A stretch of DNA of 33,017 nucleotides. Origin: a virus (taxonomy: Duplodnaviria; Heunggongvirae; Uroviricota; Caudoviricetes). The notes beneath the pieces were generated by a model. It searched no databases. It saw only the letters and a program-made list of their open reading frames with translations, and had not been told where the DNA came from. Position numbers and translations under genes: made by a program. Positions within the stretch are counted from its first letter, which is position 1; each line of letters opens with the position of its first letter. This document shows positions 3,077 through 31,060 of the stretch, one piece after another. Location of the stretch: IMG/VR virus record IMGVR_UViG_3300029886_000150. One strand, written 5' to 3'.

Positions 3077-3363
3077 AAAATATATTGCTTAATAACTGGC
3101 TGAAGATTTCAGTCATGAAAAATGGTGATTTGTCGCTAGCTGATATTAAACGCGATAAAAACACTGGGGATATGGTGGAATCAACTATAGCCATTTATGC
3201 GGATAAATTAAATCTCCTGTCTGATGTGGTCAATTTACTTGTTAAACGCGCTGTATTTCATAAGCAAATTTCATCCGTGGATGAACTGACAAAATTAACG
3301 ACAGAAATCGCCAGTTATTGCGCTGATGAATTTAAGAAACTGAACGACAAAAGGAACTGGTAA
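3073..3363 (+). CDS. Hypothetical early protein (P2 orf82 position), 96 aa
   Basis: ATG at 3073; ORF through 3363, translationally coupled to neighbours. Confidence 0.6.
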   Translation: MKNILLNNWLKISVMKNGDLSLADIKRDKNTGDMVESTIAIYADKLNLLSDVVNLLVKRAVFHKQISSVDELTKLTTEIASYCADEFKKLNDKRNW

Positions 3364-3859: not shown

Positions 3860-6134
3860 AGCCTCCGGGCGTTTTGTCCCTCCGTCAGCATTTGCCGCAG
3901 GCACCGGTAAGGCGTTTACCGGTGCTTATGCATGGAACGCGCCACGCGAGGCTGTCGGGCGCGAAAGACCCCTTACACGTGACGAGATGCGTCAGGTGCA
4001 AGGTGTTTTATCCACGATTAACCGCCTGCCTTACTTTTTGCGCTCGCTGTTTACTTCACGCTATGACTACATCCGGCGCAATAAAAGCCCGGTGCACGGG
4101 TTTTATTTCCTCACATCCACTTTTCAGCGTCGTTTATGGCCGCGCATTGAGCGCGTGAATCAGCGCCATGAAATGAACACCGACGCGTCGTTACTGTTTC
4201 TGGCAGAGCGTGACCACTATGCGCGCCTGCCGGGGATGAATGACAAGGAGCTGAAAAAGTTTGCCGCCCGTATCTCATCGCAGCTTTTCATGATGTATGA
4301 GGAACTCTGCGATGCATGGGTTGATGCACATGGCGAAAAAGAATCGCTGTTTACGGATGAGGCGCAGACTCACCTGTATGGTCATGTTGCTGGCGCTGCA
4401 CGTGCTTTCAATATTTCCCCGCTCTACTGGAAAAAATACCGTAAAGGACAGATAACCACGAGGCAGGCATATTCTGCCATTGCCCGTCTGTTTAACGATG
4501 AGTGGTGGACTCATCAGCTTAAAGGCCAGCGTATGCGCTGGCATGAGGCGTTACTGATTGCTGTCGGGGAGGTCAATAAAGACCGTTCTCCTTATGCCAG
4601 TAAACATGCCATTCGTGATGTGCGTGCACGCCGCCAGGCAAATCTGGAATTTCTTAAATCGTGTGACCTTGAAAACAGGGAAACCGGCGAGCGCATCGAC
4701 CTTATCAGTAAGGTGATGGGCAGTATTTCTAATCCTGAAATTCGCCGGATGGAGCTGATGAACACCATCGCCGGAATTGAGCGTTATGCCGCCGCAGAGG
4801 GTGATGTGGGGATGTTTATCACGCTGACCGCGCCGTCAAAGTATCACCCGACACGTCAGGTCGGAAAAGGCGAAAGTAAAACCGTCCAGCTAAATCACGG
4901 CTGGAATGATGAGGCATTTAATCCAAAGGATGCGCAGCGTTATCTCTGCCATATCTGGAGCCTGATGCGCACGGCATTCAAGGATAATGATTTACAGGTC
5001 TACGGTTTGCGTGTCGTCGAGCCACACCACGACGGAACGCCGCACTGGCATATGATGCTTTTTTGTAATCCACGCCAGCGTAACCAGATTATTGAAATCA
5101 TGCGTCGCTATGCGCTCAAAGAGGATGGCGACGAAAGAGGAGCCGCGCGAAACCGTTTTCAGGCAAAACACCTTAACCGGGGCGGTGCTGCGGGATATAT
5201 CGCGAAATACATCTCAAAAAACATCGACGGCTATGCACTGGATGGTCAGCTCGATAATGATACCGGTAGGCCGCTGAAAGACACAGCTGCGGCTGTTACC
5301 GCATGGGCGTCAACGTGGCGCATTCCGCAATTTAAAACGGTTGGTCTGCCGACAATGGGGGCTTACCGTGAATTACGCAAATTGCCTCGCGGCGTCAGCA
5401 TTGCTGATGAGTTTGACGAGCGCGTCGAGGCTGCACGCGCCGCCGCAGACAGTGGTGATTTTGCGTTGTATATCAGCGCGCAGGGTGGGGCAAATGTTCC
5501 GCGCGATTGTCAGACTGTCAGAGTCGCCCGTAGCCCGTCGGATGACGTTAACGAGTACGAGGAAGAAGTCGAGAGAGTGGTCGGCATTTACGCACCGCAT
5601 CTCGGCGCGCGTCATATTCATATCACCAGAACCACGGATTGGCGCATTGTGCCGAAAGTTCCGGTCGTTGAGCCTTTGACTTTAAAAAGCGGCATCGCCG
5701 CGCCTCGGAGTCCTGTCAATAACTGTGGAAAGCTCACTGGTGGTGATACTTCGTTACCGGCTCCCACGCCTTCTGAGCACGCCGCAGCAGTGCTTAATCT
5801 GGTTGATGACGGTGTTATCGAATGGAATGAACCGGAGGTCGTGAGGACGCTCAGGGGTGCATTAAAACACGGCCTGAAAACACCAAACCGTCAGCAAAGA
5901 AACGGAAGCCCGTTAAAATCACATGAAATAGCACCGTCGGCCAGGCTGACCCGGTCGGAACGATTGCAAATCACCCGTATCCGCGTTGACCTTGCTCAGA
6001 ATGGAATCTTGCCCCAGCGATGGGAGCTTGAGGCGCTGGCGCGTGGGGCAACCATAAATTATGACGGGAAACAATTCACGTATCTGGCTGCTGATGAGTG
6101 GCCGGGATTCTCAACAGTAATGGAGTGGACATGA
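3849..6134 (+). CDS. A: Rolling-circle replication initiator / nicking endonuclease A (P2 gpA-like), 761 aa
   Basis: ORF track 3807..6134 begins at TTG; first ATG at 3849 gives 761 aa, the P2 gpA length. Sequence resembles the gpA family as recalled; position after B and the early ORFs. Confidence 0.9.
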   Translation: MAVKASGRFVPPSAFAAGTGKAFTGAYAWNAPREAVGRERPLTRDEMRQVQGVLSTINRLPYFLRSLFTSRYDYIRRNKSPVHGFYFLTSTFQRRLWPRIERVNQRHEMNTDASLLFLAERDHYARLPGMNDKELKKFAARISSQLFMMYEELCDAWVDAHGEKESLFTDEAQTHLYGHVAGAARAFNISPLYWKKYRKGQITTRQAYSAIARLFNDEWWTHQLKGQRMRWHEALLIAVGEVNKDRSPYASKHAIRDVRARRQANLEFLKSCDLENRETGERIDLISKVMGSISNPEIRRMELMNTIAGIERYAAAEGDVGMFITLTAPSKYHPTRQVGKGESKTVQLNHGWNDEAFNPKDAQRYLCHIWSLMRTAFKDNDLQVYGLRVVEPHHDGTPHWHMMLFCNPRQRNQIIEIMRRYALKEDGDERGAARNRFQAKHLNRGGAAGYIAKYISKNIDGYALDGQLDNDTGRPLKDTAAAVTAWASTWRIPQFKTVGLPTMGAYRELRKLPRGVSIADEFDERVEAARAAADSGDFALYISAQGGANVPRDCQTVRVARSPSDDVNEYEEEVERVVGIYAPHLGARHIHITRTTDWRIVPKVPVVEPLTLKSGIAAPRSPVNNCGKLTGGDTSLPAPTPSEHAAAVLNLVDDGVIEWNEPEVVRTLRGALKHGLKTPNRQQRNGSPLKSHEIAPSARLTRSERLQITRIRVDLAQNGILPQRWELEALARGATINYDGKQFTYLAADEWPGFSTVMEWT

Positions 6135-6586
6135 TGGCAAAAATTCACGAGGTAAAGCTGCACGCAAAATATTTTGACCTTGTGCTGGAAGGAAAGAAAC
6201 GCGCAGAGTTTCGGAAAAATGACCGTAATTATGAGCGCGGGGACACGTTGATTTTGCATGAATGGGTGCAGGGTGTGTATACGGGGCGAAAGGTTGAAGC
6301 CCGGATAACAGATGTTACTGACCTGTCAGACTGGCTGGCAGATTATGTCTTGCTAAGTATTGAGCTGCTTAATACAGGCGCATATGAGATTGTGAACTGG
6401 AAAGAACTTAGTGAGCGTGGTCTGGTATTCAGAATTAATCATGAAATTATGCATCAGCTCGGCCTTGCTGTTATGTATGAACCAGAGACGGGGATGTCTG
6501 GCGGGGCAATGGTTGCCACGGATGGAGCATGGAACTATTCAGATGAACAGATGGAGCGTGCAAAGCAAAACGGGTGGCTTGGATAA
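6131..6586 (+). CDS. ASCH-like (DUF3850-like) domain protein, about 151 aa, first cargo gene
   Basis: ATG at 6131 overlapping the A stop (ATGA). N-terminal segment HEVKLHAKYFDLVLEGKKRAEFRKNDRNYERGDTLILHEW matches the ASCH/DUF3850 pattern as I recall it. Confidence 0.6.
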   Translation: MMAKIHEVKLHAKYFDLVLEGKKRAEFRKNDRNYERGDTLILHEWVQGVYTGRKVEARITDVTDLSDWLADYVLLSIELLNTGAYEIVNWKELSERGLVFRINHEIMHQLGLAVMYEPETGMSGGAMVATDGAWNYSDEQMERAKQNGWLG

Positions 6587-6792
6587 TGCACAGAATACCA
6601 GGCGAGATACCGCGACATAACACTAAAAATATCAAGCTGATGGCTATTGTTCACCGTCTACAGCAGATTATGGTCAACGAAAATCTGACGCCTGACGAGC
6701 TGGTCGGGTGTGCCGAAATAGTCCGGGATAATTACGGGCGGCTTAACTATATCGGTCAGTCCAGCGTTGCGCCACCACTACGCAGACGATAG
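6586..6792 (+). CDS. Small hypothetical protein, 68 aa
   Basis: ATG 6586 overlaps the upstream stop (TAATG); ORF ends at TAG 6790-6792, followed immediately by the hairpin at 6797-6835. No recognisable motif. Confidence 0.4.
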   Translation: MHRIPGEIPRHNTKNIKLMAIVHRLQQIMVNENLTPDELVGCAEIVRDNYGRLNYIGQSSVAPPLRRR

Positions 6793-6796
6793 AGAA

Positions 6797-6835
6797 CGCC
6801 GCCAGCCGTGAAACTTGTTTTCAGGGCTGGCGGCG
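6797..6835 (+). terminator. Stem-loop element, copy 1 (11-bp GC-rich stem, 17-nt loop containing GAAACTTGTTTTCAG), followed by GTTGAACAAC
   Basis: CGCCGCCAGCC (6797-6807) pairs with GGCTGGCGGCG (6825-6835); sits 5 nt after the stop of the 68-aa ORF. No U-tract follows, so it is not a canonical intrinsic terminator. Confidence 0.5.
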
Positions 6836-7016
6836 TTGAACAACGAGCGTAGCGAGGCGTTAGTTGACAGTCATATTTTTACTGCGTAGGTGCTGGTTTT
6901 TGACGGTTGAAAGGAGTTAGGTTGGAGAGCTAACAACTTACAAATATTCAAAAGTGAGCATCCTGTTGCTAACATGAGGTCGATTTTTTTATGTGGATGA
7001 TGCAAAAAGGATAGCT

Positions 7017-7748
7017 ATGGATACTGTAATCGCTTTTCTATCACTCGCTTTTTTCGTTGCTTTTTTCATCGGGTTAATCAAGCCATCACTGGTGCGGATG
7101 CCAAACCGTAAACGTGCAAGTGCGGTTTATCTCGGAGGTGGTTTTGCATTGAGCATAATTGGTTCAATACTCTACCCAACAGAAAAAAGCCAGCCAGTTG
7201 CTAAAACTGAAACATCAACCGTAGCAGAACACCAAACCCAAAAAACATTCGAATATAGTGAAAAAACACTCAAGGAATATCGGAACGAGCCAAAGAAGAC
7301 TCGACACGATATTGTGAATAGTTACATTGACTTTAAGAAAGTGCCTGTCACCGCATCAGATGTATTTTACGCCTGCATGAGTGAGTATACATTTACCAAA
7401 GATGATGAGTTGAAACTCGGTGATGTTCTTGGGTGGTGCTTTAATGATTATGAAAATGACCCGAATTCATTAAACAATAAAATCAATCTTGATACATTTC
7501 AGAGTAATTTTAGTGGTTGGGATGGTTCTTATCGGCCATTGGAAAAACTAATTAAAGATAATATGAACGATGATTCATCTTATAAACATGTGTCAACGCT
7601 ATATCATTTGGTTTTGAATAAAGACCCGCATGCCATTGTGAAAACCACGTTTCGCGGAACTAATGCTTATGGCGGGGTGGTTAAACAGACGATCTCGGCG
7701 CGTGTTGATGTGCGAACGGGTGAAGTTGTTTCGATACTCGATAACTAA
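7017..7748 (+). CDS. Cargo protein with two predicted N-terminal transmembrane helices and a C-terminal soluble domain of about 180 aa; function unknown
   Basis: ORF track 6993..7748 starts at GTG; ATG 7017 has a better ribosome-binding site (AGGA, 5-nt spacer). Hydrophobic segments VIAFLSLAFFVAFFIGLI and AVYLGGGFALSIIGSILY. AT-rich coding sequence. Confidence 0.65.
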   Translation: MDTVIAFLSLAFFVAFFIGLIKPSLVRMPNRKRASAVYLGGGFALSIIGSILYPTEKSQPVAKTETSTVAEHQTQKTFEYSEKTLKEYRNEPKKTRHDIVNSYIDFKKVPVTASDVFYACMSEYTFTKDDELKLGDVLGWCFNDYENDPNSLNNKINLDTFQSNFSGWDGSYRPLEKLIKDNMNDDSSYKHVSTLYHLVLNKDPHAIVKTTFRGTNAYGGVVKQTISARVDVRTGEVVSILDN

Positions 7749-7765
7749 ACCAGTAAAGTGATAAA

Positions 7766-7802
7766 CGCCGTCAGTACTGAAACTTGTTTCAGGCTGACGG
7801 TG
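7766..7802 (+). terminator. Stem-loop element, copy 2 (CGCCGTCAG / CTGACGGTG stem around CTGAAACTTGTTTCAG), followed by GTTGAACGAC
   Basis: Same loop core and same downstream GTTGAAC motif as copy 1, with different but still complementary stem bases; sits 18 nt after the 2-TM gene stop. Confidence 0.5.
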
Positions 7803-7848
7803 TTGAACGACATTAACAGTGATAAATTAGTAGCGGAACACAATAATC

Positions 7849-7907: not shown

Positions 7908-8582
7908 ATGGTTTTTCGTGCAGATGAAAGTGCTCAACGTGGATTTGAGAAAGCATGCAGTGTATTGATTACAAATGATATCGTTGGTAATGAGAGAGCT
8001 TTTGCTCGTCAAAAACTGGAACAAATTATTGATGAATGTGGTTCCGTAGTTGATGGGTATCCAGGTTGGCATCCTTTTTTGATGGAAACTGATTCAGATA
8101 GTTTTTCTCCAATGATTCCTGATAATTGCTCAAGTTATCGACTGCTTGATCATTCTGTATATCTGGTAAATGGAATCATAACGTGTCCTTATAGTCATGC
8201 AGTTGGCCAGTTAGTTAGCAATATTCAAGCGATACGAAACAAGCATGATTTAGCTGATATAACGATAGAAGAAATTAAAGGCGTGACTTTCTACAATTCT
8301 CATACAACACCTATGTTAATTAGATGCCGTTGGAAAACTGGACTGGAAGAAGATGGCACAATCCCCCTGCGTACAGCTTTGGGGTTGATGCTTGAAAGAG
8401 AATTGCCGGGATGGAGATGGGGACGATTTAATCAGAGTTGGGAAAGCATGAGAGGGGATATTTTGGGTTATCCTCATGGCGCTAGGTCTTCTTTATTTGT
8501 CAATCAGCAAACAGGTCAGCAGCTAAAAAACGTATGGAATCAACTTATAAAAGCTGGTTTATGGGGGGATGAATATAAATAA
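7908..8582 (+). CDS. Soluble cargo protein, 224 aa, function unknown
   Basis: ATG 7908 after GAGG; AT-rich; last gene before the cos region. No motif I can assign to a known family. Confidence 0.65.
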   Translation: MVFRADESAQRGFEKACSVLITNDIVGNERAFARQKLEQIIDECGSVVDGYPGWHPFLMETDSDSFSPMIPDNCSSYRLLDHSVYLVNGIITCPYSHAVGQLVSNIQAIRNKHDLADITIEEIKGVTFYNSHTTPMLIRCRWKTGLEEDGTIPLRTALGLMLERELPGWRWGRFNQSWESMRGDILGYPHGARSSLFVNQQTGQQLKNVWNQLIKAGLWGDEYK

Positions 8583-8723
8583 TCAGAATTATATTCCTGT
8601 GCATGTCTGTGACGCATTAATTTGCATGCGTTTTCCTCTACTGTTGCTTGTGAGAGCCGTCAGTGCCGGCGCGCTCTTGGAGTGTTCATGCAACTGCATT
8701 AAAACCGCCCCATGAAGCGGGCG

Positions 8724-8742
8724 GGCGAGGCGGGGAAAGCAC
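8724..8742. other. Cohesive-end (cos) site, 19-nt P2-type sequence GGCGAGGCGGGGAAAGCAC
   Basis: Exact match to the P2 19-nt cohesive end as I recall it, about 170 bp beyond the 3' end of Q, where cos lies in P2. Preceded by a GC hairpin CCGCCC..GGGCGG. Confidence 0.6.
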
Positions 8743-8885: not shown

Positions 8886-8909
8886 AAAAAAGCCGCCCGC
8901 AGGCGGCGA
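8886..8909 (-). terminator. Rho-independent terminator downstream of Q (minus strand)
   Basis: GCCGCC / GGCGGC stem (8893-8898, 8904-8909) followed on the minus strand by a 6-U tract (plus-strand A-run 8886-8891), 3 nt past the Q stop. Confidence 0.7.
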
Positions 8910-8912
8910 TGT

Positions 8913-9947
8913 TCAGCCGTTGTCAGTGTCCAGTGAGTAGTTTTTAAAGCGGATGACTTCCTGGCCGAGCCAGCCGTTTATCTCGCGGATCCTGTCCTGT
9001 AGCGGGATAAGCTCATTGCGGACAAAGACCTTTGCCACTTTCTCAATATCGCCCAGCGACCCGACGTTCTCCGGCTTGCCGCCCATCAACTGAAAGGGGA
9101 TGCGGTGCGCGTCCAGCAGGTCAGCGGCGCTGGCTTTTTTGATATTAAAAAAATCGTCCTTCGTTGCCACTTCACTGAGCGGGATAATTTTAATGCCGTC
9201 GGCTTTCCCCTGTGGGGCATAGAGAAACAGGTTTTTAAAGTTGTTGCGGCCTTTCGACTTCACCATGTTTTCGCGGAGCATTTCGATATCGTTGCGATCC
9301 TGCACGGCATCGGTGACGTACATGATGTATCCGGCATGTGCGCCGTTTTCGTAATACTTGCGGCGGAACAGCGTGGCTGATTCATTCAGCCAGGCAGAGT
9401 TAAGGGCGCTGAGATATTCCGGCAGGCCGTACAGCTCCTGATTGATATCCGGCTCCAGCAGGTGAAACACGGAGCCGGGCGTGAAAGGTGTTGGCTCGTT
9501 GAAGGACGGCACCCACCAGTAAATATCTTCTTCCACACCACGGCGGGTATATTTTGCCGGTGAGGTTTCCAGTCTGATGACCTTACCGGTGGTGCTGTAA
9601 CGCTTTTCCAGAAACGCATTACCGAACACCAGAAAATCCAGCACAAAGCGGCTGAAATCCTGCTGGGAAAGCCACGGATGCGGGATAAATGTCGAGGCCA
9701 GAATATTACGTTTGACGTAAATCGGGGAGCTGTGATGCACGGCAGCACGCAGGCTTTTTGCCAGACCGGTAAAGCTGACCGGTGGCTCATACCATCTGCC
9801 GTTACTGATGCACTCGACGTAATCCAGAATGTCACGGCGATCGAGTACCGGCACCGGCTCACCAAAGGTGAATGCCTCCATTTTCGGGGCGCTGGCGGTC
9901 ATTGTTTTTGCCGCTGGTCGCGGTGTTTTCCCTTTTTTCTTGCTCAT
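8913..9947 (-). CDS. Q: Portal protein (P2 gpQ-like), 344 aa
   Basis: ORF 8913..9947 minus; length equals P2 gpQ and the sequence resembles it as recalled; overlaps the P stop. Confidence 0.9.
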   Translation of the reverse strand: MSKKKGKTPRPAAKTMTASAPKMEAFTFGEPVPVLDRRDILDYVECISNGRWYEPPVSFTGLAKSLRAAVHHSSPIYVKRNILASTFIPHPWLSQQDFSRFVLDFLVFGNAFLEKRYSTTGKVIRLETSPAKYTRRGVEEDIYWWVPSFNEPTPFTPGSVFHLLEPDINQELYGLPEYLSALNSAWLNESATLFRRKYYENGAHAGYIMYVTDAVQDRNDIEMLRENMVKSKGRNNFKNLFLYAPQGKADGIKIIPLSEVATKDDFFNIKKASAADLLDAHRIPFQLMGGKPENVGSLGDIEKVAKVFVRNELIPLQDRIREINGWLGQEVIRFKNYSLDTDNG

Positions 9948-28620: not shown

Positions 28621-31060
28621 CAATGTAAAATTACAGGTATTGCTCAGGGCTGTTGACCAGGCATCCCGCCCGTTTAAATCCATCCGCACAGCGAGCAAGT
28701 CGCTGTCGGGGGATATCCGGGAAACACAAAAATCACTGCGCGAGCTGAACGGTCACGCATCCCGTATTGAGGGATTCCGCAAGACCAGTGCACAGCTCGC
28801 CGTGACTGGTCATGCACTTGAAAAGGCTCGGCAGGAAGCAGAAGCCCTTGCCACACAGTTTAAAAACACCGAACGTCCGACCCGTGCTCAGGCGAAAGTG
28901 CTGGAATCCGCAAAGCGTGCGGCGGAGGACTTACAGGCGAAATATAACCGCCTGACGGATTCCGTTAAACGCCAGCAGCGGGAACTGGCCGCTGTGGGAA
29001 TTAATACCCGCAATCTTGCACATGATGAGCAGGGACTGAAAAACCGTATCAGTGAAACCACCGCACAGCTTAACCGTCAGCGCGACGCGCTGGCGCGTGT
29101 CAGTGCGCAACAGGCAAAACTTAACGCAGTCAAACAGCGTTATCAGGCCGGAAAGGAGCTGGCCGGAAATATGGCCTCAGTGGGCGCTGCCGGTGTGGGG
29201 ATTGCGGCGGCGGGAACGATGGCCGGAGTTAAGCTGCTGATGCCCGGTTATGAGTTTGCGCAGAAAAACTCAGAATTGCAGGCCGTGCTCGGAGTGGCAA
29301 AAGACTCCGCCGAAATGACCGCACTACGCAAACAGGCGCGCCAGCTCGGCGACAATACCGCCGCCTCGGCGGATGATGCGGCCGGTGCACAGATAATCAT
29401 CGCGAAAGCGGGTGGGGATGTTGATGCCATTCAGGCAGCAACGCCGGTCACGCTGAATATGGCGCTGGCGAACCGCCGCACGATGGAAGAAAACGCCGCC
29501 CTGCTGATGGGGATGAAATCCGCCTTTCAGCTTTCAAACGATAAGGTCGCTCATATCGGGGATGTTCTCTCCATGACGATGAACAAAACCGCCGCCGATT
29601 TTGACGGCATGAGCGATGCGCTGACCTATGCCGCACCTGTGGCAAAAAATGCCGGTGTCAGCATTGAAGAAACCGCCGCAATGGTCGGGGCGCTGCATGA
29701 TGCAAAAATCACAGGCTCAATGGCGGGGACGGGAAGCCGTGCCGTATTAAGCCGCCTGCAGGCACCGACGGGAAAAGCATGGGATGCACTCAAAGAGCTT
29801 GGAGTGAAAACCTCAGACAGCAAGGGAAACACCCGGCCAATATTTACCATTCTGAAAGAAATGCAGGCCAGTTTTGAGAAAAACCGGCTCGGTACTGCCC
29901 AGCAGGCTGAATACATGAAAACTATTTTCGGGGAGGAGGCCAGCTCAGCCGCCGCCGTGCTGATGACTGCCGCCTCAACCGGAAAGCTGGACAAACTGAC
30001 CGCTGCGTTTAAAGCCTCAGACGGGAAGACCGCCGAGCTGGTAAATATCATGCAGGACAACCTAGGCGGTGACTTTAAAGAGTTTCAGTCCGCTTATGAG
30101 GCAGTGGGGACTGACCTGTTTGACCAGCAGGAAGGCGCACTGCGTAAGCTCACTCAGACGGCCACAAAGTATGTGTTAAAACTCGACGGCTGGATCCAGA
30201 AAAACAAATCACTGGCGTCAACCATCGGCATCATTGTCGGTGGTGCACTGGCACTGACTGGTGTCATCGGTGCCATTGGCCTCGTAGCCTAGCCGGTTAT
30301 CACCGGCATCAATGCCATCATCGCGGCAGCAGGCGCAATGGGGGCAATCTTCACGACGGTTGGCAGTGCTGTTATAACCGCCATCGGGGCGATTAGCTGG
30401 CCGGTTGTGGCCGTGGTGGCCGCCATTGTCGCCGGGGCGTTGCTTATCCGTAAATACTGGGAGCCTGTCAGCGCATTCTTTGGCGGTGTGGTGGAAGGGC
30501 TGAAAGCGGCATTTGCGCCGGTGTGGGAACTGTTCACGCCACTTAAACCGGTGTTTGACTGGCTGGGTGAAAAGTTACAGGCCGCGTGGCAGTGGTTTAA
30601 AAACCTGATTGCCCCGGTCAAAGCCACCCGGGACACCCTGAACCGTTGCCGTGACACGGGCGTCATGTTCGGGCAGGCACTGGCTGACGCGCTGATGCTG
30701 CCGCTTAATGCGTTCAACAAACTGCGCAGTGGTATTGACTGGGTACTGGAAAAACTCGGTGTTATCAACAAAGAGTCAGACACACTTGACCAGACCGCCG
30801 CCAGAACTCAAGCCGCCACGTATGGCAGCGGTGGTTATATTCCGGCGACCAGCTCTTATGCAGGTTATCAGGCTTATCAGCCGGTCACGGCACCGGCTGG
30901 CCGCTCTTATGTAGACCAGAGTAAAAACGAATATCACATCAGCCTGACGGGTGGTACTGCGCCGGGGACACAGCTCGACCGCCAGTTACAGGATGCGCTC
31001 GAAAAATACGAGCGGGATAAACGTGCGCGCGCCCGTGCCAGCATGATGCATGACGGTTAA
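28613..31060 (+). pseudogene. T: Tail tape-measure protein T, full-length frame of 815 codons interrupted by one in-frame TAG at 30290-30292 (codon 560)
   Basis: ORF track splits it into 28613..30292 (559 aa) and 30338..31060 (240 aa) in the same frame; total length equals P2 gpT (815 aa); no frameshift, a single amber codon. Confidence 0.8.

Follow-up and report, generated by a model that had tools for sequence, protein, structure and literature searches.

A covarying hairpin element with a conserved tail just before the variable region of P2- and 186-like prophages

How do P2-like phages exchange the genes that lie between gene A and cos? This interval is among the best studied hotspots of anti-phage defence genes, and recent surveys regard the mechanism by which its content is exchanged so fast, even between unrelated backbones, as unknown (PMC9122126; PMC13586616). 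The window analysed here is a 33,017-nt (33-kb) stretch of a P2-like prophage where two related stem-loops were found in that interval, one on either side of a gene that the preliminary description had taken for a cargo gene with two TM helices (Table 1). The TM pair is indeed present but the gene is not a one-off cargo, as it is the homologue of orf97 of the phage 186 SOS operon and a widely conserved accessory gene (69-95% identity across loci by tblastn). The phage 186 record annotates orf97 with 'expression from plasmid blocks 186 infection'. In the window, 15 nt separate the stop of this homologue from copy 2. On the other side, the ori nick region precedes copy 1 by about 1.09 kb and is likewise on the + strand. 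The 224-aa cargo ORF gave no family match in Pfam or PHROG.

Table 1. Features of the window with their positions, strand and supporting evidence
Feature	Positions	Strand	Evidence
P2-type origin nick region within gene A, GCGCCTCGG/AGTCCTGTCAA	5700..5720	+	identical to annotated P2 ori
orf91 homologue (DUF3850/ASCH + DUF7415), last broadly conserved upstream gene	6131..6586	+	Pfam, PHROG matches
orf92-like small gene, phrog_11386, stop codon 2 nt 5' of copy 1	6586..6792	+	ORF list, PHROG match
Copy 1, whole element (hairpin plus tail)	6795-6863	+	
Copy 1 hairpin	6795..6837	+	sequence, RNA fold, CM match, family covariation
Copy 1 tail, GAACAACGAG-CGTA-GCGAGGCGTTAG, conserved, single-stranded, SD-like GAGG inside	6838..6863	+	loop-motif loci
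Phage 186 orf97 homologue, phrog_3403, 2 N-terminal TM helices, between both hairpin copies	7017..7748	+	tblastn
Copy 2, whole element (hairpin plus tail)	7764-7830	+	
Copy 2 hairpin	7764..7804	+	sequence, RNA fold, CM match
Copy 2 tail, decayed, GAACGACATTAACAGTGATAAATTAG	7805..7830	+	CM alignment to consensus
Variable cargo ORF, 224 aa, between copy 2 and cos	7908..8582	+	ORF list
Portal gene Q, conserved gene bounding the variable interval on the right	8913..9947	-	ORF list, tblastn anchors

Both stem-loops were confirmed by sequence, by folding against shuffles and by a covariance model (CM) search. The hairpin of copy 1 consists of AAC, a 10-bp GC-rich lower stem, a 1x1 mismatch, a 5-bp UGAAA/UUUCA upper stem, the loop CUUGU and the closing GUU. 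In copy 2, AAC is followed by an 8-bp lower stem with one G.T wobble and a 6-bp CUGAAA/UUUCAG upper stem, again with a closing GUU. The AAC...GTT closure is formed by residues 6795-6797/6835-6837 in copy 1 and 7764-7766/7802-7804 in copy 2. The RNA minimum free energies are -35.5 (copy 1) and -25.9 kcal/mol (copy 2), with z-scores of -5.7 and -5.1 respectively against shuffles. A CM built from relatives matched copy 1 at 6786-6866 (94 bits, E 4e-26) and copy 2 at 7755-7833 (39.8 bits, E 4e-10), and no third copy was observed in the window, where all other matches had E > 0.5. The two copies had been described as sharing a loop core and a downstream GTTGAAC. Both are shared, but the supposed loop is an A/U-rich upper helix of 5-6 bp with a loop of 4-5 nt, and GTTGAAC opens a 26-nt tail. 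This tail reads GAACAACGAGCGTAGCGAGGCGTTAG in copy 1, up to position 6863, while copy 2 retains only GAAC, scattered bases and TTAG (7827-7830). Decayed tails were also observed in the second copies at other two-copy loci.

Across the family, the element spans about 69 bases and comprises a hairpin of about 20 bp with an invariant AAC/GUU closure, followed by the tail GAACAACGAG-N3-6-(G)CGAGGCGUUAG. At the level of sequence comparison, our alignment of 63 distinct relatives shows that selection acts on the structure of the element, as the preliminary description had proposed from the window pair, where a single genuine double change (C-G to T-A) is seen beside one G-C to G-T wobble. Over 17 pairs, 96.2% of the cells were paired, against at most 53% when the partner was slid. 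Double-sided changes were found in 12 of these 17 pairs (134 such cells), and none of 500 shuffles was as high. The + strand was observed to fold more stably in 58 of the 63 relatives (Wilcoxon p 1e-11), and about 107 G.U cells are found in the family alignment against 13 A.C cells. Single-stranded + strand DNA would likewise tolerate G.T better than A.C, which weakens this asymmetry as a sign of an RNA role.

The element might have no function of its own and be a passively duplicated 3' flank carried along by orf92 and orf97. The decay of second copies would agree with this, as would the dispensability of the element and a wide distribution that comes partly from horizontal spread with these two genes. 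However, compensatory changes on both sides of most pairs across genera, with pairing still at 96%, argue against such a flank, and the element was also observed to persist where both flanks have been replaced. We therefore find a functionless element hardly credible.

About 50 loci found through the loop motif also proved to carry the tail, which had been no part of that search. In the genome-wide set its invariance is partly imposed by the search pattern, and only the loop-anchored and portal-anchored sets are unbiased as to its conservation. In some 186-like prophages the ATG of a real ORF is located 8-9 nt 3' of GAGG. For two unrelated ORFs the ATG is located 2-3 nt past TTAG; one is phrog_2100 and the other has a UmuD-like N-terminus, recognised by eye, with no match in Pfam. 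Two further features are fixed in the hairpin: the invariant AAC/GUU has an adjacent conserved G.G mismatch, and the upper stem keeps its polarity, being A-rich on the 5' side and U-rich on the 3' side. An exonuclease barrier alone would leave the tail, the AAC/GUU with its G.G mismatch and the polarity of the upper stem unexplained and therefore, a sequence-specific reader of the element is probable. No Rfam 15 family reaches its gathering threshold, and the E-value mode gave only chance matches to miRNA-like hairpins. The element is thus a clean covarying structured motif without an Rfam match, in which the tail and the fixed base triplets suggest a specific reader. Candidates for such a reader are the neighbouring ASCH-domain Orf91, Orf92, Hfq and ProQ. 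A weak Rfam alignment in 186 had suggested that the 3' arm might pair with the variable spacer in an alternative, attenuator-like hairpin; no covariation was found for it, and complementarity to the own spacer (4.21) was close to that of cross-pairing (4.18), with 217 of 500 shuffles as high.

When the motif was searched for in related prophages, as had been suggested, the element was found to recur just before the variable region in P2- and 186-like prophages across many Enterobacterales genera. Its position is constant, between the replication gene A and cos/portal Q, and its orientation is that of A. In 38 of 71 distinct contexts it starts exactly 2 nt past a stop codon, which belongs to orf92, orf97 or tum/DinI, and a gene follows it immediately in 8 of the 71. 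Homologous recombination alone does not explain this 2-nt distance behind the stop codons of unrelated genes. The element is present wherever a full orf92, orf97 or tum/DinI is the last rightward gene, with the exception of one locus, and is absent at loci where these genes are missing or truncated. An orf92-like gene precedes it in many loci, and two copies flank an orf92-like gene in five of the loci. In phage 186 the element follows orf97, while in several 186-like prophages it is found directly after tum/DinI, at the place of the partial terminator t95a in 186. For other genera, a placement after gene B (the site of a P2 terminator) was considered and rejected, as tblastn located the element downstream of A, after a DinI/Tum-like gene. 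Horizontal transfer along with orf97 and orf92 accounts for part of how widely the element is distributed.

A census of 5426 E. coli genomes found the element in 511, with a median of 1 and a maximum of 2 copies, which rules out a dispersed mobile repeat or MITE. P2 itself is without the element. Furthermore, in an unbiased sample most E. coli P2-type loci were observed to carry variable cargo but no element. The element is therefore dispensable, and is neither essential nor a general mechanism of hotspot turnover.

The flanks of the element change abruptly. BLAST homology of the window to many P2-like phages, with Wphi, P2 OU784549 and YpM_46 as examples, stops at position 6865, 2 nt past the tail of copy 1. 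In five of seven compared pairs, including one of a P2-type with a 186-type backbone, homology begins at most 3 nt from the 5' edge of the element. A total of 117 contexts were distributed over 60 downstream classes, and one downstream class was found to be joined to at least four upstream genes. The order of the units is also permuted, for example orf92-element-orf97-element, orf97-element-orf92-element and DinI-element-orf92-element. A linkage analysis showed that hairpin variants go with the upstream flank whereas those of the spacer go with the downstream flank (permutation p 0.016), which places the breakpoints inside the element, spread along its length. Read as an evolutionary pattern, these comparisons show that the element marks the exact points of gene swapping. 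The suggestion that the stem-loops are recombination boundaries thus holds for the homology edges, permuted units and internal breakpoints. There is no sign of a dedicated system of cassette exchange, since there is mostly one copy and at most two, and since the cargo of most E. coli P2-type loci varies without the element.

We noticed that several of these features are shared with integron attC sites, where structure is likewise conserved over sequence, AAC/GTT is near-invariant at the base, GTTRRRY is found on the 3' side and the site is 3' of an ORF. The element could accordingly be an attC-like site, with a recombinase or an HUH nuclease reading its folded strand and precisely capturing 'gene + hairpin' cassettes. 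This would agree with an invariant AAC...GTT closing a palindrome of variable sequence and conserved structure, with GTTGAAC fitting GTTRRRY, with the conserved mismatch adjoining the AAC/GTT box, and with the cassette-like place 3' of an ORF. It would also agree with the very sharp junctions, the recurrent 2-nt distance from stops and the permuted cassette order. Unlike attC sites, however, the element forms no array and usually occurs once, its breakpoints are dispersed along its length and not at one bond, and its 26-nt conserved tail has no attC counterpart. It may also differ in the strand used: the top strand folds better than the bottom strand (58/63), whereas in attC the strand that folds and recombines is the bottom one. 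The 7-mers to the left (AGAGAAC, GATAAAC, GACAAAC and AGCGAAC) do not conform to the R'' box RYYYAAC of attC, and attC membership was rejected on this misfit, on the copy number of at most two and on the missing array. A general ORF scan of the window, not specific to IntI, gave the usual P2-type gene set and nothing resembling an integron integrase. The element has no similarity to the gpA nick site either. We also considered that the AAC/GTT-closed hairpin, folded on the + strand displaced in rolling-circle replication, might serve as a cassette-capture site for a phage or host enzyme that joins 'gene + hairpin' units exactly behind stop codons, in an integron-like manner but without an integron integrase. 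If true, this would account for the 2-nt distance from the stops of unrelated genes as well as for the sharpness of the junctions on the left side of the P2/186 defence hotspot. Both forms of site-specific capture are considered highly improbable.

The strand and the place of the hairpin also bear on replication. P2 is the phage in which the rolling-circle mode was worked out. The gene A protein introduces a nick in the + strand at ori, and this strand is then displaced rightward by rolling-circle synthesis. A hairpin folded on it might provide an ssi/PAS-like site where the lagging strand is primed or a primosome assembled. The hairpin shares its strand with the ori nick sequence and in every case lies downstream, from 1.1 kb in the window to 1.8 kb in phage 186, as would suit an ssi/primosome site on the displaced strand. 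It is asymmetric between the strands, with G.T tolerated on the + strand, and is stable when folded as DNA (z = -8.6 for copy 1 and -6.5 for copy 2 against shuffles). One intact copy per genome is usual, with the second copy decaying, which would also fit. However, P2 and most E. coli P2-type loci are without the element, and its presence tracks particular upstream genes and stop codons, which replication does not need. No similarity to the gpA nick site was observed (p 0.45), and a second gpA nick site inside the element was rejected because they share only a 7-mer (p 0.45) that is not conserved in the 186 ori. A replication signal is therefore considered unlikely.

In its neighbourhood, its orientation and its place at the end of rightward operons, the element resembles t95a and t95b of 186 and the B-orf80 terminator of P2. 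Those terminators are hairpins with a T-tract, whereas a T-tract is absent 3' of both copies by sequence and by terminator scan. The preliminary description was correct in not regarding the stem-loops as plain intrinsic terminators: the hairpin is GC-rich, but GAACAACGAG and not a U/T run follows the stem, and the terminator scan flags neither copy. The annotated terminator of p95 in 186, t95b, is a hairpin of its own that lies some 20 nt past the element. The element may still signal to the elongating polymerase, as a pause, partial termination or antitermination site (ops/nut/put-like) or as a terminator lacking a U-tract, which would control read-through from the early/SOS operon into the AT-rich cargo. 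Its occurrence in several 186-like prophages where 186 has t95a, and immediately upstream of horizontally acquired genes, would be consistent with this. The tail contains GGCGTTAG, which matches the RfaH ops core GGCGGTAG at 7 of 8 positions. The mismatch falls at G5, which is essential for RfaH. RfaH ops/JUMPstart membership was rejected, as the tail has T at position 5 and GGCGGTAG with both G5 and T6 was not found, and as there was no Rfam match at any threshold, including to such JUMPstart, nut and put-type models as Rfam contains. The absence of a U-tract, the canonical terminator that comes after the element in 186 and the frequent location of downstream cargo on the opposite strand also argue against an elongation signal, which we regard as distinctly unlikely.

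We lean towards an intercistronic or 3'-UTR RNA hairpin module that doubles as a linker for homologous recombination in a PeSL-like manner, and regard this as somewhat probable. The module, typical of P2/186-like phages (Peduoviridae) of Enterobacterales, consists of a structure-conserved hairpin of the + strand, the sense of the rightward genes, together with the sequence-conserved unpaired tail with its SD-like GAGG, located directly behind the stop of the last rightward gene or genes (orf92, orf97 or tum/DinI) before the variable A-to-cos interval. In the transcript, the stable hairpin may form a protected 3' end or a processing point of the upstream message and insulate this message from downstream sequence, while the tail may offer a ribosome-binding region to an immediately following gene. 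A role in RNA stability or processing, one of those first suggested for the stem-loops, is plausible. If this is true, a stable 3' end would be expected at the foot of the hairpin, or else a cleavage site within the stem or within GUUGAACAAC. In the DNA, the pattern shows the module as the sole sequence common to otherwise unrelated flanks, including P2-type and 186-type backbones, and homologous crossovers therefore happen there. Such crossovers swap the downstream cargo block and add, remove or reorder 'gene + hairpin' units. The duplication in the window may record one of them, with orf92-element followed by orf97-element and a redundant second copy that is decaying in its tail.

T4-type phages carry regulatory cassettes known as PeSLs, for promoter-early stem-loop (Arbiol et al. 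2010, PMC2839356; Comeau et al. 2014, PMC4122927). A strong sigma-70 early promoter within the motif and excised 'ORF + motif' mini-circles are characteristic of these cassettes. The element resembles them as a short conserved intergenic stem-loop motif in a variable region (hyperplastic in T4-type phages) that flanks small non-essential ORFs and gives homology for shuffling. In both, 'ORF + motif' units come and go and change their order, and insertions, deletions and replacements between related phages end at the motif. Unlike the PeSLs, which number dozens per genome, the element has 1-2 copies per genome, a stem-loop without a U-tract and a conserved SD-containing tail, and no sigma-70 promoter-like site was found in or beside either copy.

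The REP/BIME sequences of enterobacteria are likewise imperfect GC-rich palindromes directly 3' of genes. They are transcribed, and their best-known role is that of a barrier to 3'-5' exonucleases which stabilises the upstream message. The element differs from REP in its sequence, its longer stem and its conserved tail. REP/BIME membership was rejected, since REP sequences have hundreds of dispersed copies per chromosome whereas the element is found only in P2/186-like prophages, in 511 of the 5426 E. coli genomes with at most two copies in each. According to the modular theory of lambdoid phages, homologous crossovers occur at mosaic joints, in short conserved sequences that separate exchangeable modules. 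The element would be a comparable linker between exchangeable modules. Unlike the lambdoid boundary sequences, it is a covarying structure with a defined strand, which implies a function of its own beyond homology.

The element carries no annotation in the GenBank records of P2, Wphi and phage 186 and is unmentioned in Rousset 2022, the 2026 NAR hotspot paper, the 2026 P2-virus survey and the BTP5 transcriptome papers. It is apparently undescribed, although it may have been described earlier. For the hotspot, it provides a concrete and testable left-hand crossover point of exchange, and in practice it is a useful landmark for delimiting cargo in Peduoviridae prophages. An article by Nilsson, Karlsson and Haggard-Ljungquist from 2004 (Mol Biol Evol 21:1) reportedly speaks in its title of site-specific recombination at the same region. 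The element is shared by P2-type and 186-type phages though their replication proteins are only about 37% identical.

Two stem-loops were found where the preliminary description had placed them (6797-6845 and 7766-7810), both within the A-to-Q interval of a nearly complete P2-like prophage. Their RNA minimum free energies are -35.5 (copy 1) and -25.9 kcal/mol (copy 2), with z of -5.7 and -5.1 against shuffles, and as DNA folds they are also far above shuffled sequence in stability (z of -8.6 and -6.5). The stems of both copies reach outward to an AAC...GTT triplet pair, and what had been described as the loop is actually an A/U-rich upper helix bearing a loop of 4-5 nt. A covariance model built from relatives and searched across the 33-kb window recovered exactly these two copies. 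Compensatory stem changes had been proposed between them; one double change was observed, but otherwise only one wobble, so relatives were needed to test for selection on structure.

Features in and around the A-to-Q interval of the window, and features of other records
Feature	Position	Strand	Remarks
B, orf80-83, replication gene A		+	
P2 ori nick sequence	~5700-5720		
orf91 (DUF3850/ASCH)			first after gene A
Small orf92-like gene			second after gene A
Element, copy 1	6786-6866		94 bits; tail complete (to 6863)
orf97 homologue (2-TM cargo gene)	7017-7748	+	third after gene A
orf97 homologue, L164	5105-5836		
Element, copy 2	7755-7833		39.8 bits, E 4e-10; tail decayed
Orphan cargo ORF, 224 aa	7908-8582	+	fourth after gene A; between copy 2 and cos
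cos region			after the orphan ORF
Terminator, canonical hairpin + T-tract	8705-8724	-	inside cos-proximal region
Portal Q, terminase P		-	after the cos region
Terminator, canonical hairpin + T-tract	8892-8907	-	just past portal gene Q
Element, phage 186 record	30335-30415		between orf97 and t95b
t95b, phage 186 record	30436-30463		annotated p95 terminator; ordinary hairpin plus T7
Element remnant, L210	9685-9737		
Element remnant, L216	9187-9249		
Element remnant, L242	9053-9103		
Hairpin of P24A7b (L002)	4745-4795		after orf97 homologue
Hairpin of phage 9W (L001)	3250-3280		after orf97 homologue

Relatives were sampled by three routes. Scanning viral contigs for the loop motif plus GTTGAAY gave ~50 P2-like loci, nearly all with a further conserved tail though this was absent from the search pattern. 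The unit is AAC-hairpin-GGTT-GAACAACGAG-N3-6-(G)CGAGGCGTTAG, ~69 nt, and matches no Rfam family. A tail-anchored scan of one genome per species, in which invariance of the tail is imposed by the search pattern, gave 39 loci (Citrobacter, Enterobacter, Pantoea, Serratia, Erwinia, Kluyvera, Raoultella, Tatumella, Mixta and others) with hairpins very unlike one another in sequence. Lastly, 80 loci fixed on portal protein Q provided an unbiased view. Part of the wide distribution is horizontal spread with orf97 and orf92; homologues of orf97 share 69-95% identity across genera.

In an alignment of 63 distinct sequences, one 17-bp helix was supported by both RNAalifold and explicit pair counting, and selection on structure is upheld: 96.2% of cells are paired, a share that falls to 31-53% if the 3' partner is slid 1-3 columns away, and 12 of the 17 pairs show changes on both sides (134 cells). 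None of 500 shuffles reached the observed values for four of five measures and three did so for the fifth, pairs with both-side change, but shuffle-based statistics are inflated by related sequences, and it is fairer to compare with the slid controls. No alternative hairpin pairing the 3' arm with the spacer was found. Conserved beyond pairing are the closing AAC/GUU, the mismatch adjoining it (mostly G.G) and the polarity of the upper stem, where the 5' side is A-rich and the 3' side U-rich, never flipped. G.U pairs occupy ~107 cells against 13 for A.C, so the + strand folds better; it was the better folder in 37/37 sequences of the first set and 58/63 of the full set (means of -25.6 versus -17.9 kcal/mol, Wilcoxon p 1e-11). 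What folds is therefore the + strand, whether as ssDNA or as the sense transcript of the rightward genes. That the displaced strand carries a priming signal as ssDNA is considered less probable than a role in the transcript; no similarity to the gpA nick site was found in the element.

The element always lies between gene A and Q in the orientation of A. The gene ahead of it is orf92, orf97, a tum/DinI-like gene or sometimes another one, and in 38 of 71 distinct contexts AAC begins exactly 2 nt past the stop codon. Apart from L200, every locus in which an intact copy of one of these three genes comes last has the element, and loci in which they are absent or truncated lack it. It is a conserved module of defined structure and strand that occupies a fixed place. 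It is also dispensable: P2 itself is without it because tin/old abut a truncated orf91, and among the E. coli P2-type loci sampled through portal Q only 8 of 35 have a copy, mostly diverged.

At the other end, an ORF starts 2-3 nt past the final TTAG in 8 of 71 contexts, and from this spacing GAGG probably acts as its Shine-Dalgarno. Loci with an ORF this close behind the element include L126, L127, L139, L143, L145, L147, L155 and L162. Two unrelated ORFs would use this GAGG. One is phrog_2100 (unknown function), a conserved ~85-aa ORF (MGKKDxNYQIVYRG...) right after the element in 186-like prophages; the other (L141, L151) has the N-terminus MGFPSPAQDY, which we take to be UmuD-like, and no Pfam match. 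The tail ends in GGCGTTAG (window 6856-6863 and all full copies), one base off the RfaH ops core, GGCGGTAG. A transcription-elongation signal is suggested by this resemblance, but the mismatch falls at an essential position, a base that RfaH needs, and the likeness is therefore only a lead to a less probable reading.

The preliminary view that these are not plain intrinsic terminators is borne out, as there is no T-tract at either copy and t95b of phage 186 is a separate hairpin. The two - strand terminators of the window contrast with the U-tract-less element. A dispersed repeat was also ruled out, since 511 of 5426 complete E. coli genomes have a match and do so at no more than two places each (median one); four of the 534 matching places are on plasmid records, not chromosomes.

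The A-to-Q interval is the classical 'TO region', a defence hotspot of P2-like phages (PMC9122126, PMC6823313). According to the phage 186 record, orf97 belongs to the LexA-controlled p95 SOS operon and its plasmid-borne expression blocks 186 infection. The 224-aa ORF matches nothing in Pfam, PHROGs, PADLOC or NCBIfam and is an orphan cargo gene within this hotspot.

The suggestion that the stem-loops mark recombination boundaries agrees with homology edges, permuted gene order and breakpoints inside the element, and the motif recurs at the A-to-Q cargo border across genera. Homology of the window to Wphi, a P2 isolate and Yersinia phages stops at 6865, 2 nt past the tail. In five of the seven pairs of loci compared (L157/L135, L135/L156, L005/L230, L005/L110 and L009/L021), the upstream genes are unrelated and homology sets in no more than 3 nt from the first base of the element, continuing through the block downstream; in the remaining two it starts further upstream, in shared orf92. 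Gene A is P2-type in L157 and 186-type in L135. By what lies downstream, the 117 distinct contexts sort into 60 classes; each class of upstream gene occurs with 5-16 of them, and the t95b-type downstream class is found behind at least four upstream genes. Hairpin variants are linked more to the upstream flank (AMI 0.42 versus 0.33 downstream) and spacer variants more to the downstream flank (0.53 versus 0.34 upstream), a contrast with permutation p of 0.016 and a bootstrap CI excluding 0, which indicates that crossovers fall inside the element. Two copies bracket one gene in 10 of 123 loci, in permuted orders such as orf92-element-orf97-element (window, L059, L100), orf97-element-orf92-element (L093, L154 and L210, where the first copy is a deletion remnant) and DinI-element-orf92-element (L223, L226, L235); in most pairs the copy after orf92 has the intact tail and the other is decayed. 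The edges and interior of the element are joints of mosaic exchange.

We favour a model where the exchange would be ordinary homologous recombination with the element as sole shared sequence, and a true site-specific, attC-like site has a lower probability. In the transcript, the hairpin may mark a processing point or a protected 3' end and so insulate the message upstream of it, with the tail as a putative ribosome-binding or other protein-binding region. This model does not fully explain the sequence-specific features and the 2-nt spacing from stop codons of unrelated genes. The closest analogue is the PeSL regulatory cassettes of T4-type phages, which mediate modular shuffling (PMC2839356, PMC4122927); however, the element has no promoter or functional terminator, differs in copy number and has the conserved tail as its own feature.

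The remnants in L210, L216 and L242 are internally deleted or truncated, with the hairpin gone, the tail only, or the tail cut. In P24A7b the hairpin shares the architecture of the element but is strongly diverged, and the model missed it (GCCACCGA...TCGGTGGC, then ATTGAAAG); phage 9W has a small unrelated one (GCCAGCAT/ATGCTGGC). Furthermore, the matches to orf83 and gene A lie ~0.8-1.05 kb apart in L030, L054 and L102; these genes overlap in P2, and an insertion at the start of A may account for the extra DNA.
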